The translations under genes and the position numbers were made by a program. From UHGV virus genome UHGV-0138297: a stretch of DNA of 23,481 nucleotides. The stretch is one strand, 5' to 3'. Numbering within the stretch: position 1 is the stretch's first letter; the number at the start of each line of letters is the position of its first letter. Shown here piece after piece: positions 19,929-23,481 of the stretch. Under the pieces are notes generated by a model. It was not told the DNA's origin. It searched no databases and saw nothing but the letters and a program-made list of their open reading frames with translations. Source of the stretch: a virus.

Positions 19929-20552
19929 CTAACGTGTGACCGCATTCAAAATGTTGTCTGCGATTGACTCTTCTTTGTGGCATTGCACCACCAGAGCGTC
20001 ATACAGTGGCTTAACAGTGCGTGACCAGGTGGGTTGAGTAAGGTTTGGGATTAGCATCGTTACAGCGCGATATGCGGCGCTTGCTGGCATTCTTGAATAG
20101 CCGACACCTTTGCATCTTCCGCATTCTTTCTCAACAACTCTCCCCCACAGCTCTGTTTTTGATATATCAACCGCACGGCCTGTACCGTGGCAATCTCTGC
20201 ATCTTGCCCCCGGCGTCGCGGCACTACGGCAATAATCCGCATAAGCGAATGTTGCGAGCACTTGCAGTACCTTTGCCTTAGTATTTCCTTCGAGCTTTGC
20301 CACACCACGGTATTTCCCCGATACCTTGTGTGCAAATTGCATCAGATAGTTGATAGCCTTTTGTTTGTCGTTCTGGCTGAGTTCGTGCTTACCGCAGAAT
20401 GCAGCCATACCGAATCCGGCTTGTGATTGCGCCATCCCCATAGCAGCCATCACATCAGTACCGGAAAGAGAGTCAGAAGCCGTGGCCCGTGGTGAGTCGC
20501 TCATCATCGGGCTTTTTGGCGAATGAAATTTAGCTACGCTTTCGAGTCTCAT
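19929..20552 (-). CDS. Q: Late antiterminator Q (lambda type)
   Basis: 207 aa, essentially matching lambda Q as I recall it (MRLESVAKFHSPKSPMMSDSPRATASDS...), including the zinc-binding Cys cluster CRDCHGTGR...CGRCKG. Confidence 0.93.
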   Translation of the reverse strand: MRLESVAKFHSPKSPMMSDSPRATASDSLSGTDVMAAMGMAQSQAGFGMAAFCGKHELSQNDKQKAINYLMQFAHKVSGKYRGVAKLEGNTKAKVLQVLATFAYADYCRSAATPGARCRDCHGTGRAVDISKTELWGRVVEKECGRCKGVGYSRMPASAAYRAVTMLIPNLTQPTWSRTVKPLYDALVVQCHKEESIADNILNAVTR

Positions 20553-20737
20553 GGCCTTCCCCTTTTTCCCTGTTTGACCATCAGGACGCCGTTAACTATT
20601 ACGTGACGCTCGCCTTTGCTGTCTCGGTTGTACTTGAGCACTGTTCCTCTTGCGCAGGAAAGCATCCTCGCCACTTCGGTCTGATTGCCTCGTGTCTGGA
20701 TAAGAAGCTCTGGTATCGTTTGAATTGTGGCGTTCAT
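20549..20737 (-). CDS. ninH: NinH-like small DNA-binding protein
   Basis: 62 aa. The motif TIPE/DML....GNQTEVAR.L.CSRGTV.KY......G....IVN.VLMV matches lambda NinH as I recall it. ATGA overlap with Q. Confidence 0.78.
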   Translation of the reverse strand: MNATIQTIPELLIQTRGNQTEVARMLSCARGTVLKYNRDSKGERHVIVNGVLMVKQGKRGRP

Positions 20738-21096
20738 ACGTTCTCCAGTTCGGTGATTTTTATTCCAAGCCGTCCGCCTGGTACTTTCACACCACGAATT
20801 ACGCGAATGTCATCGAATTGCTCGTCGTCTTCCGCAAATCCGGCGTGGATAAGGGAGTCGAGTAAACCTTTCAGGATGTTGTCGAGGTCGCGGCGGCGGG
20901 AGTCTGGAACGTCTGCGATGACTTTGATACGGAGTCGTGATTTGGTGAAAATGTCTAACTTGAGTTGGCGAATGATTTGCTGAACGTCTTTTCGGTATTT
21001 CTGGCCTTTATCGCTGATGTAGTATTGGCTTCCCCGTCTTCTCCAGTAGGTATTCAGCGACGGCGGGTATGGAAGCACAAACTGATATTCGTTCAT
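20734..21096 (-). CDS. rusA: Holliday-junction resolvase RusA
   Basis: 120 aa with the RusA pattern (PPS.N.Y.R.......S.....YR..V......L.....K....I.....PD.RRRDLDN..K...D.L..AGF..DD.Q..D.R.V.....GGRL.I.ITE). Confidence 0.88.
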   Translation of the reverse strand: MNEYQFVLPYPPSLNTYWRRRGSQYYISDKGQKYRKDVQQIIRQLKLDIFTKSRLRIKVIADVPDSRRRDLDNILKGLLDSLIHAGFAEDDEQFDDIRVIRGVKVPGGRLGIKITELENV

Positions 21097-21383
21097 GGTT
21101 TAATCTTCCCCTCCTTCAGCAGTATCGCCTGCGTCCTGATCACGCCTTCGAGGTGGTAAAGTCTGGCGTCTTTGTTGTCGAGGTTATGGGTGCGTCGGTC
21201 GATCTCCGCGTGGCAGTCGCTACAAGCCCATGCGCCGATCAGGTCGTCAGGTTTCATTCCCGTTCCGCAAATTCCAGCCATCCGGTAATGTGCCAGAACT
21301 GTAGTTTCAGGATTGCCATTGCATACGCCGTAAATACGTACCTGACATTCTCTGCCGCGTGCTTCTTTGCGTAGATTGGCCAT
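21093..21383 (-). CDS. YbcO-like (DUF1364) putative nuclease
   Basis: 96 aa with conserved Cys/His residues. It sits directly upstream of rusA, as ybcO does in the DLP12-type nin region. Confidence 0.7.
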   Translation of the reverse strand: MANLRKEARGRECQVRIYGVCNGNPETTVLAHYRMAGICGTGMKPDDLIGAWACSDCHAEIDRRTHNLDNKDARLYHLEGVIRTQAILLKEGKIKP

Positions 21384-22105
21384 TAAGCAGCCTCCCCTGT
21401 TACTTTCAGCATTCCGTTATCGAGCAGCTTTCTGGTCAGCCACTGTTGACCACGCCCGGTGATTTTTGTGGTGAACGATATCTGTATTCCGTGATTTGTG
21501 TTGACTGCTGTTTCTTTCACTGTGAAATAGCCGCGCTCCATATATTCCTGCATTGGCACATTGCGCCGGGAACCTGAAGCAATAAGGATTTTGTGATCGC
21601 GCATCCACGCAAACAGTTTGTTTGGACCAATACCGACAACCTTTGCAAAGTTTCCAATCAAAATTCCGCTGGCTTCGCCAACGCGATCGGCAAACTCAAC
21701 TTTAGGTGCGGCAATTGCGAGCTGGTTTTCCAGTTGCATTTTCTGCTCAGCAAGATCAGCAGCAAGGCGCAACGCTTCTGGTAGCGTTTTGGGGATATTA
21801 ACCGCAGCTTCTTCAAGCTCTCGCCAACGGTCAACAAGACGAGCGGTGAATTCCGGCGACAACTGAGCGACGACAATAATGCTGTCTCGCTTACCTTGTT
21901 CGCCCTCAAAAACGTAAGCCTCTACGCCACGAAGTAATCCTAAGTTATTGATTTTTTCGAAAACCACCATTGGGGGATTTCGGATCACACCTCGAGCCGC
22001 CAGTCGTTCAATAGATTGTTTCACCTTGTCATGACGACTTCCCACCAACTCAGCGATTTCAATGCTTGTCATTTTGATGGCATTGCCATTTATTAACTCA
22101 TTCAT
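21383..22105 (-). CDS. Phage antirepressor, Rha N-terminal domain plus Ant/KilAC-type C-terminal domain
   Basis: 240 aa. The N-terminus (ITMTSIEIAELVGSRHDKVKQSIERL) is Rha-like and the C-terminal half is antirepressor-like. Confidence 0.8.
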   Translation of the reverse strand: MNELINGNAIKMTSIEIAELVGSRHDKVKQSIERLAARGVIRNPPMVVFEKINNLGLLRGVEAYVFEGEQGKRDSIIVVAQLSPEFTARLVDRWRELEEAAVNIPKTLPEALRLAADLAEQKMQLENQLAIAAPKVEFADRVGEASGILIGNFAKVVGIGPNKLFAWMRDHKILIASGSRRNVPMQEYMERGYFTVKETAVNTNHGIQISFTTKITGRGQQWLTRKLLDNGMLKVTGEAA

Positions 22106-22274
22106 CGTCTTCTTCCTCGTACATTGAGCTATTCGGATCGCTCATCAGCTCTGCGCAGCAATCGGAGCACACGTGAACTTCCAGCACATGCAGCTTCTGA
22201 CCGCAGTTAGCGCACGTTAAAGCCCGCTCGACGCTTTCTTTCTGGTATTGAAGGGATTGGGATGGGCTAAGCAT
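22098..22274 (-). CDS. Small zinc-ribbon protein (hypothetical), below the ORF-track length cutoff
   Basis: 58-codon ORF (MLSPSQSLQYQKESVERALTCANCGQKLHVLEVHVCSDCCAELMSDPNSSMYEEEDDE) with a CxxC...CxxCC motif and an acidic tail. Its stop overlaps the antirepressor start by 8 nt and its start overlaps the upstream gene's stop. There is no clear SD, so translational coupling would be needed. Confidence 0.4.
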   Translation of the reverse strand: MLSPSQSLQYQKESVERALTCANCGQKLHVLEVHVCSDCCAELMSDPNSSMYEEEDDE

Positions 22275-22677
22275 TATTGGCGTCCTGCATCATGAGAAAG
22301 ACAATCATGGCGGCGCGGAGTGGATTAGACTGATACTGAATTCCGAACTTTTGACAAGATGAAATCGCATCACACCACTCGTGATATTCGCCTTCATATC
22401 TCGTATCGGTACTATCAAACATTATGCTGATTTTGTTTTCAGTGATAATTGGCCACGCATATTCAGGATTATTGCAAGGATTGAAGCAATTTCCGTTTGA
22501 AGAACGGAAGCCATTAATATCCCTTTTTTGCGTCTGCCAAATAGGACCTCTTTCGTCAGTGGGGATCTCAGAATCGAAATCTGCTTCGTCATCAGGTATG
22601 AAGAAATGCTCCTCCATATCTAAAGCCTCACATACTCGCTTGTTAATTTCAAAATCACTTAACTGTGAATAATCCAT
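22267..22677 (-). CDS. Hypothetical AT-rich nin-region protein
   Basis: 136 aa from ATG 22677 (MDYSQLSDFEINKRV...), with SD GAGGAA 6 nt upstream. Acidic and Cys-containing. Visibly AT-richer than its neighbours. The ORF-track start at 22719 is a GTG extension overlapping NinE. Confidence 0.65.
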   Translation of the reverse strand: MDYSQLSDFEINKRVCEALDMEEHFFIPDDEADFDSEIPTDERGPIWQTQKRDINGFRSSNGNCFNPCNNPEYAWPIITENKISIMFDSTDTRYEGEYHEWCDAISSCQKFGIQYQSNPLRAAMIVFLMMQDANNA

Positions 22678-22679
22678 TG

Positions 22680-22856
22680 TCATTTCCTCGCACGATGCCT
22701 TAGCCACCGGATATCCCACAGGTGAGCCGTGTAGTTGAAGGTTTTTACGTCAGATTCTTTTGGGATTGGCTTGCGTTTATTTCTGGAGCGTTTCGTTGGA
22801 AGGTATTTGCAGTTTTCGCAGATTATGTCGGTGATACTTCGTCGCTGTCGTCTCAT
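22680..22856 (-). CDS. ninE: NinE-like protein
   Basis: 58 aa from the internal ATG ([58 protein letters not shown]), with SD GGAGGT upstream. Resembles lambdoid NinE as I recall it. Confidence 0.75.
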
Positions 22857-23197
22857 TCGTACCTCCTGTCGGTAAATCTGACACCCTGACCAATAGCCCA
22901 TGCTGTTGTGTACTCGATCAGACTTGCCATACGCTTCACGCTCATCTGCGCGCTGCTTTCGCGAATGTTGACGTATTCACCTTCAAGGCCGGGCAAAACA
23001 TCAGCTTCCTGCTTTGTTGCCACTGCATGACCGCTTATCAACAAAACCTTCCATTGTTCTGGTTTTAACCATTTGCCGCACCATTGAACCTGACTTGCGA
23101 TATCCGCCAGCATCGCGTGAAATTTTGCGTTCTGGTCAAGGTTGCGCTTGTAGTCAGTAATGCGGATGGTGATTGGCTTGTCTTTATCGAGTGGTGT
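22853..23197 (-). pseudogene. ninB: ninB-like recombination gene, 5'-truncated by the IS insertion
   Basis: The open frame without a start codon reads ...PLDKDKPITIRITDYKRNLDQNAKFHAMLADIASQVQWCGKWL..., which matches lambda NinB from about residue 25 onward as I recall it. The frame runs upstream into the IS terminus with no N-terminal region. Confidence 0.7.
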
Positions 23198-23481
23198 TGA
23201 CCTGCCCCCAGGATTAGATACAACCGTCAGTTAGTAAGGTCGGTTTGTTTACCTTCACATTTTCCATTTCGCCACCGTGCTGCAAACTCTGATGGCGTCT
23301 GATAATTCAGTGCTGAATGTGGACGACACTCGTTATAATCCTGCCGCCAGTCATTAATGATTTTCCTTGCGTGAACGATATCGCTGAACCAGTGCTCATT
23401 CAGGCATTCATCGCGAAATCGTCCGTTAAAGCTCTCAATAAATCCGTTCTGCGTTGGCTTGCCCGGCTGGATTAAGCGCAA
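23198..23481 (-). mobile_element. IS3-family insertion sequence, right end only; continues beyond the window
   Basis: A terminal sequence beginning TGACCTGCCCCCAGG... at about 23198 is adjacent to the transposase 3' end. The boundary is inferred from where NinB similarity stops and a TG...-type end begins. Confidence 0.75.
23227..23481 (-). CDS. IS3-family transposase OrfB, C-terminal fragment (5' end outside the window)
   Basis: The translation (...[24 protein letters not shown]...[18 protein letters not shown]...) has the conserved C-terminal motifs of IS3-family DDE transposases. Confidence 0.85.

Follow-up and report, generated by a model that had tools for sequence, protein, structure and literature searches.

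What is the 58-codon open reading frame (ORF) that overlaps both of its neighbours directly upstream of an antirepressor-like gene in a lambdoid prophage, and does it serve that antirepressor? The window analyzed here, a 23,481-nt stretch of DNA (UHGV virus genome UHGV-0138297), carries this ORF on its minus strand at 22098..22274. An earlier note on the same DNA had regarded it as an unannotated zinc-ribbon micro-ORF and as a candidate regulator or partner of the antirepressor. We find instead that the ORF is ninF, an already known gene that has long been part of the lambdoid phage gene lists. Its product is probably a small, Zn(II)-stabilized binding protein, and the 3′ end of its gene would additionally act as a fixed joint from which the next gene is translated. 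We give this reading as a whole (the ORF being ninF of the ninR region, with the proposed binding role and the 3′ joint as its best explanation) a probability of about 0.9. Here, we describe the gene and its surroundings, the evidence for its identity and coding status, and the readings of its function that compete with this one.

The gene and its place in the nin operon

The ORF was recovered exactly as it had been described: it starts with ATG, counts 58 codons, and stops at TGA (22098..22274, minus strand), and its status as a coding sequence draws on the ORF listing, Pfam, phrog_672, RefSeq identity, and pN/pS. Its translation is MLSPSQSLQYQKESVERALTCANCGQKLHVLEVHVCSDCCAELMSDPNSSMYEEEDDE. 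The protein contains five cysteines in the arrangement C21-x2-C24-x11-C36-x2-C39-C40, of which the Cys4 core (codons 21–40; 22155..22214, minus strand) is a candidate metal-binding site, presumably for zinc. The acidic tail claimed by the earlier note is present as well, reading YEEEDDE (codons 52–58; 22098..22121 including the stop codon, minus strand), in a protein with a computed pI of 4.3 and a net charge of −9.3. The claimed overlaps with both neighbours are exactly 8 nt each: ATGCTTAG joins the ninX stop to the ninF start (22267..22274, minus strand), and ATGAATGA joins the ninF stop to the roi/ant start (22098..22105, minus strand). Both starts are preceded by putative Shine-Dalgarno-like motifs at a distance of 8 nt from the ATG, namely AGGA for ninF (22283..22286, minus strand), located inside ninX, and GAGGA for roi/ant (22114..22118, minus strand), located inside Glu codons of ninF. 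A promoter and terminator scan of positions 21300–23300 placed none inside the ninF ORF, with counts at the level of shuffled sequence, and an Rfam scan of the whole window returned no RNA family.

The genes around it form a ninR region of the standard kind for lambdoid or P22-like prophages, here of E. coli, with the gene order ninB-ninE-ninX-ninF-roi-ybcO-rusA-ninH-Q, all on the minus strand. In lambda-like and P22-like phages this region is delayed-early and transcribed from pR. The 87 ninF loci compared show the same orders, and the conserved layout can be written as ninB-ninE-(ninX)-ninF-(variable gene)-...-ninH-Q. NinB extends from 22853 to ~23200 and has its 5′ end cut. It is followed by NinE (58 aa, 22680..22856), for which the Pfam NinE match (E 1.5e-43) covers residues 16–73 of a longer ORF, and by NinX (22267..22683; Pfam Phage_P22_NinX, E 1.5e-14), which is 138 aa long if its start is taken as the ATG within the ATGA shared with ninE; RefSeq likewise has a NinX family protein of 138 aa at the syntenic locus. 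Downstream of ninF lies the gene for a Roi-type DNA-binding/KilAC 'antirepressor' of 240 aa (21383..22105; Pfam ANT/KilAC, E 1.2e-32; phrog_63), and then come the nin operon genes encoding YbcO (21093..21383), RusA (20734..21096), NinH (20549..20737), and Q (19929..20552). All eight junctions from ninB to Q (19929..23113) overlap: five times as ATGA, once by 1 nt, and twice by 8 nt. Judged from this compact layout, translation is probably coupled along the whole operon.

The downstream gene that had been called a Rha/Ant antirepressor is a homologue of Roi and is annotated as such in HK629-like phages, H-19B, CUS-3, and Stx phages. Its N-terminal Rha domain scores 27.8 bits, which is below the Pfam cut-off of 29.9.

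At the other end of the operon, ninB is abutted by the 3′ portion of a transposase gene of the IS3 family (23194..23481, with a minus-strand ORF at 23227..23481). This fragment is 99.7% identical to RefSeq copies named 'IS3 family transposase', and the window ends inside the element. The ninB frame is recognizable up to about 23200 only, with roughly the first 20 codons absent. Because the IS3 element cuts inside ninB, the nin operon is severed from its upstream side (pR, O, and P).

Identity as ninF

The identification of the ORF as ninF follows from family models and from named counterparts, and none of the evidence speaks against it. The Pfam family NinF (PF05810) matches with 51.6 bits (gathering cut-off 27.5; E 8.2e-14), aligning the complete model (1–25 of 25) to residues 20–44, and phrog_672 matches end to end (1–58 of 58; E 5.7e-37). 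A tblastn search of GenBank phages resulted in 219 records matching the query, in which the matched ORFs bear the name NinF in P22, phage 21, and HK629 as well as in many Stx and P22-like phages; the counterpart in H-19B is labelled 'nin orf-58-B'. The named NinF ORFs of P22, HK629, and phage 21 span 77–97% identity (96.5% for P22, 77% for phage 21), and the lambda ORF is 84.6% identical over residues 6–57. An identical protein (100%) exists in RefSeq as WP_000950973.1, 'protein NinF', from a syntenic E. coli prophage. The label 'unannotated' is thereby true solely of the first ORF track: the gene is covered by a Pfam family and a PHROG, carries a product name in RefSeq, and is entered in the gene lists of lambda and P22, and it was the ORF-length cut-off of the scan that hid it. 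Being already named, with a Pfam family, and present on textbook maps of lambda and P22, ninF has little value as a discovery.

The NinF proteins of lambda, P22, phage 21, HK629, and H-19B belong to the same family and occupy the same genomic slot as the gene in the window, and the known proteins share with it the Cys4 core, a DPN motif, and the acidic tail. The differences are few. The N-terminus of the window's NinF is of the 'MLSPSQSLQYQK' type, whereas many other alleles carry the 'MIDxNRSYEQ' type, and the gene following ninF is roi in the window, an arrangement shared with HK629, but ninG in lambda and P22. Otherwise, there is no substantial difference between the window's NinF and the known ones.

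Searching 5.8 billion proteins gave 106 relatives; those named in their source are mostly called NinF and stem largely from Escherichia and Salmonella. When 1.8 billion representatives were searched exhaustively with HMMER, only 34 matches emerged, which indicates that the NinF family is small and confined to phages of Enterobacterales. An NCBIfam scan of NinF, Roi, and NinX gave no match, and neither did the PADLOC models of anti-phage defence for NinF, Roi, NinX, and NinE.

Coding status and conservation

The 80 IMG/VR loci with a near-identical NinF contain 46 distinct 177-nt alleles and 12 protein variants. Across these alleles, which are not independent samples, the variable columns are distributed over codon positions 1, 2, and 3 as 6, 1, and 22, i.e. 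22 third positions versus 7 first and second positions combined. The Nei–Gojobori pN/pS is 0.09 for the whole gene and 0.067 for codons 4–55, which are free of overlap with the neighbours. More distant conservation was assessed in an alignment of 20 homologues reaching down to 40% identity, including 58–65-aa proteins that are 40–60% identical (P0108, P0111, P0112, P0114, P0117, P0118, and P0121). In this alignment M1, C21, C24, E32, and C36 are invariant, and Y10, S14, R17, L28, C39, D46, P47, N48, M51, E54, and D56 are shared by at least 90% of the sequences, so that the DPN motif and the acidic tail are also among the conserved features of NinF homologues.

Given the Pfam match above its cut-off, third-position variation with low pN/pS, and cysteines that are conserved at 40–60% identity, the sequence comparisons establish ninF as a genuine protein-coding gene under strong purifying selection. 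The earlier note had named loss of the cysteines and of the reading frame as the outcome that would speak against its small gene; both are conserved in homologous regions. Its cysteine motif needs one correction, as the pattern is present and four of the cysteines are conserved, but the fifth (C40) is variable and dispensable in the 20-sequence alignment.

Some alleles, from Salmonella and elsewhere (P0018, P0057, P0059, P0060, and P0068), have 'VCEASCSELM' in place of 'VCSDCCAELM', with a serine at position 39 and C40 kept. These 'CEASC' alleles suggest that either cysteine of the CC doublet could serve as the fourth metal ligand.

The distant NinF loci were reached via single-protein queries, as no stretch was conserved enough for an alignment query. 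One of the loci, from a Caldilineaceae metagenome-assembled genome (L084), shows 39% identity over 33 residues and was dropped as doubtful.

Predicted structure

An AlphaFold2 (AF2) model of NinF, with the conservation alignment as input, has a mean pLDDT of 84, with values of about 90 in the Cys4 block. The model predicts a helix at residues 4–18, a knuckle and short hairpin bearing C21 and C24, and a second helix at residues 37–43 that starts at C36/C39. Confidence is lowest in the tail (pLDDT 68), to which the model assigns no secondary structure. As modelled, NinF has a single Cys4 site that is more treble-clef-like than a classical two-hairpin ribbon. Taken with the AF2 model, the invariant Cys4 pattern suggests that NinF may bind Zn(II) through the four cysteines. 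With two CxxC pairs in ~60 aa, NinF resembles generic small zinc-ribbon/treble-clef proteins of the Cys4 type in its motif only.

Proposed function and the association with NinE

Our literature search for NinF function found no functional study. When ninF is knocked down by CRISPRi in lambda, the lethal effect is due solely to polarity on Q, and plating recovers once Q is supplied; ninF is accordingly scored as non-essential, which agrees with the old nin deletions (PMC10695390). The ninR genes are expressed from pR during lytic growth only (PMC7166090), and ninF is not expressed in the Kapi1 lysogen (PMC12922286). The lambda interactome lists the function of NinF as unknown and gives for it only the yeast two-hybrid pairs NinF–A, NinF–M, and NinF–U, all with low support and two of them seen with one vector pair (PMC3224144).

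We propose that the NinF fold begins with a helix, continues with a single Zn(II) site of four cysteines (a knuckle and then a short helix), and ends in an acidic tail that is flexible. The protein would probably act stoichiometrically, as a small binding protein rather than as an enzyme, with the Zn(II)-stabilized fold presenting an acidic tail that probably engages a basic partner. Its target is most likely a basic nucleic-acid-handling protein, of phage or host origin, that functions in early lytic DNA metabolism. On the basis of synteny and opposite charge, the best-placed candidate would be NinE, a very basic protein, rather than the antirepressor. The features that offer handles for assigning a function to NinF are the Cys4 core, the DPN motif, the acidic tail, the constant presence of NinE alongside it, and the cassette joint discussed below.

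The association with NinE deserves attention in its own right. NinE accompanies NinF in 85 of the 87 loci, irrespective of the genes in between or downstream, compared to 41 of the 87 for Roi. Both proteins are 58 aa long and opposite in charge (NinE: pI 11.2, +12.7; NinF: pI 4.3, −9.3), and NinE carries one CxxC. One could imagine that these two small proteins, each containing cysteines, work together as an acid–base pair and perhaps modulate the recombination functions encoded next to them (NinB/Orf, NinG/Rap, or RusA). The near-constant co-occurrence, the equal length with opposite charge, the location of both genes between recombination genes, and the conserved synteny of ninD, ninE, and ninF remarked on in the literature (PMC4118853) all speak for such a pair. 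Against it, NinE is absent from the lambda two-hybrid interactions found under the name NinF in the interactome paper (PMC3224144), and the two genes may co-occur simply because they are linked in a compact operon. We consider this specific pairing unlikely.

The 3′ end of ninF as a proposed start platform and cassette joint

In all 80 near-identical loci, the downstream gene, whichever of eight families it belongs to, starts at the same ATG within the ninF tail, in the arrangement GAGGAAGAAGACG-ATG-xx-TGA/TAA. The sequence GAGGAAGAAGACGATGAATGA is invariant up to this ATG in 80 of 80 loci, irrespective of the downstream family, and of the 80 overlaps between ninF and the downstream gene, 77 measure 8 nt and the other three 11 nt. 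The 25 nt before the joint (22098..22125 region; loci L003–L082) are likewise invariant in the 46 alleles. Codons 50–57 contain no variable third position (0 of 8), versus 21 of 49 elsewhere, for which the chance is ~0.01 when naive independence is assumed. This invariance at silent sites may reflect an added constraint at the nucleotide level or recombinational homogenization at the joint, and it is only suggestive, as the alleles are not independent.

The last NinF codon tracks the cassette that follows: where roi or another gene beginning with MNE or MSD follows, it is GAA or GAG before TGA (Glu), and where ninG follows, which begins with MAK, it is GGC before TAA (Gly). Because the last codon co-varies with the downstream cassette, the mosaic joint can be placed inside the last two codons of ninF.

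At the upstream side, the 80 loci show two unrelated genes, NinX and a 135-aa coiled-coil protein (28 loci). Most upstream junctions, including those of the 135-aa gene, have the ATGCTTAG overlap, and some NinX alleles have a 1-nt TAATG overlap instead. NinF homologues from other Enterobacterales (Phytobacter and metagenomic phages) also follow ninE or ninX, and in most of the distant homologues the downstream start codon again falls within the acidic tail.

These observations are consistent with a second role for the 3′ end of ninF, in which GAGGAAGAAGACG-ATG would provide the Shine-Dalgarno region and the start codon for whichever gene comes next, the DNA of the acidic tail thereby doubling as the ribosome-binding region of the downstream gene. 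Such a platform would couple translation of the next gene to that of ninF, and it would offer lambdoid phages a fixed joint at which cassettes are swapped.

A bolder combination of both roles can be conceived, in which the acidic tail is put to dual use: as DNA, it would be a universal docking joint for cassettes (roi, ninG, an HNH endonuclease, and small genes), and as protein, together with the Cys4 site, it would neutralize or chaperone NinE or another nucleic-acid binder. In that case, NinE and NinF would form a conserved two-protein module tuning early recombination or replication. We hold this to be speculative and quite doubtful.

Conversely, the stretch might be conserved mainly at the nucleotide level, with the DNA serving as a joint for recombination and as a platform for ribosome binding and coupling, and a peptide of little function. 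The invariance of the tail DNA GAGGAAGAAGACGATG, the missing third-position variation in codons 50–57, the shift of the last codon with the cassette, and the non-essentiality of ninF would all fit. However, pN/pS is 0.067 over codons 4–55, where synonymous change is abundant; the four cysteines, E32, the DPN motif, and the N-terminal Y, S, and R are kept in homologues of 40–60% identity; homologues for which the DNA was read (L083 and L085–L090) differ in nucleotides at both junctions; and the AF2 model is confident. This makes a mainly nucleotide-level role very unlikely.

Roi as a neighbour of ninF

For the earlier note, this ORF was a candidate to regulate or partner the Rha/Ant antirepressor (here Roi), with translational coupling suggested by the overlaps. 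NinF would then be dedicated to Roi and translated together with it. The position of ninF directly upstream of roi with an 8-nt overlap agrees with this, as does the recurrence of the ninF–roi order in HK629, CUS-3, Stx phages, and 40 of the 80 IMG/VR loci. A tally of the genes downstream of near-identical ninF in these 80 loci gives a different picture. Next to the 40 loci with Roi/Ant, 15 have NinG, 10 a 70-aa protein, six an 89-aa protein, four an HNH/NUMOD4 endonuclease, three a 130-aa hydrophobic protein, and one locus each has one of two other families. In other words, the same ninF allele (97–100% identity) is followed by NinG in 15 loci, by the endonuclease in four, and by five other unrelated families in 21. 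In P22, lambda, and phage 21, ninF is followed by ninG, without Roi, and Roi is present in just 41 of all 87 ninF loci, against 85 of 87 for ninE.

The overlap itself carries no information specific to this pair, as every junction of the operon overlaps. Here, the earlier suggestion of translational coupling stands in part: the start/stop overlaps are real and conserved across the family, and coupling is plausible, but they are not special to ninF and roi (eight of eight operon junctions). Judged by gene order, coupling would plausibly belong to the operon in general and to the joint at the 3′ end of ninF, with no sign of a NinF–antirepressor partnership. The neighbour tally largely refutes the partner reading, to which we assign a very slim chance; roi is a neighbour of ninF rather than an obligate partner, and the suggested link between them an accident of mosaic gene order.

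One IMG/VR locus (L031) has a 116-aa ORF after ninF that fuses the first 22 residues of Roi to YbcO, the product of an in-frame deletion of nearly all of roi. Given this near-total deletion, roi is dispensable in the context of that locus.

Fold comparisons and spurious frames

Structure searches with the NinF model found no significant analogue, so that the fold provides no functional lead. Against the PDB, Foldseek returned no significant structural analogue (best E 0.42, to RING domains), and against BFVD the top matches are solely NinF proteins of Erwinia phages. At the sequence level, NinF scores E 0.007 with Pfam DZR_2, below the threshold of that family. A profile search of PDB sequences gave a local match to ShdD (PDB 7ae7; E 0.0024, 21 residues, motif EVxVCEKCC), which we treat as a resemblance of the motif alone: the match is confined to 21 residues, and ShdD is a decarboxylase subunit without phage context.

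NinF was also considered as a TraR/DksA-like protein binding the secondary channel of RNA polymerase (RNAP). Lambda also encodes Orf73, a protein of the TraR/DksA type. The layout is loosely similar, with a small size and a helix–Cys4 site–helix order, and TraR bound to RNAP (6n57_M) ranks fourth in Foldseek, but this match has an E of 1.2, a TM of 0.41, and an rmsd of 9.7 Å. Moreover, no Pfam zf-dskA_traR match to NinF appears at E up to 0.01, and hhalign of the NinF profile against F-plasmid TraR gives a probability of 28% over 15 columns, laying the second knuckle of NinF on the first of TraR. NinF also lacks the N-terminal acidic tip of TraR/DksA and spaces its cysteine pairs by 11 residues versus 17. 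With no Pfam match and an hhalign alignment that is out of register, we rejected this reading as extremely improbable.

As for a chance ORF, a length of 58 codons is by itself no evidence for a gene, since the last 3 kb of the window alone yield 38 ORFs of 30 aa or longer, mostly spurious. The Pfam, phrog_672, homologue, pN/pS, and cysteine-conservation evidence nevertheless refutes this reading, and its probability is negligible.

Several database 'proteins' (P0009, P0033, P0039, P0082, P0104, and P0110) fuse NinF with parts of NinB, NinE, YbcO, or RusA. These entries reflect deletions or frameshifts in degraded prophages, or read-through by gene calling at the overlapping junctions.
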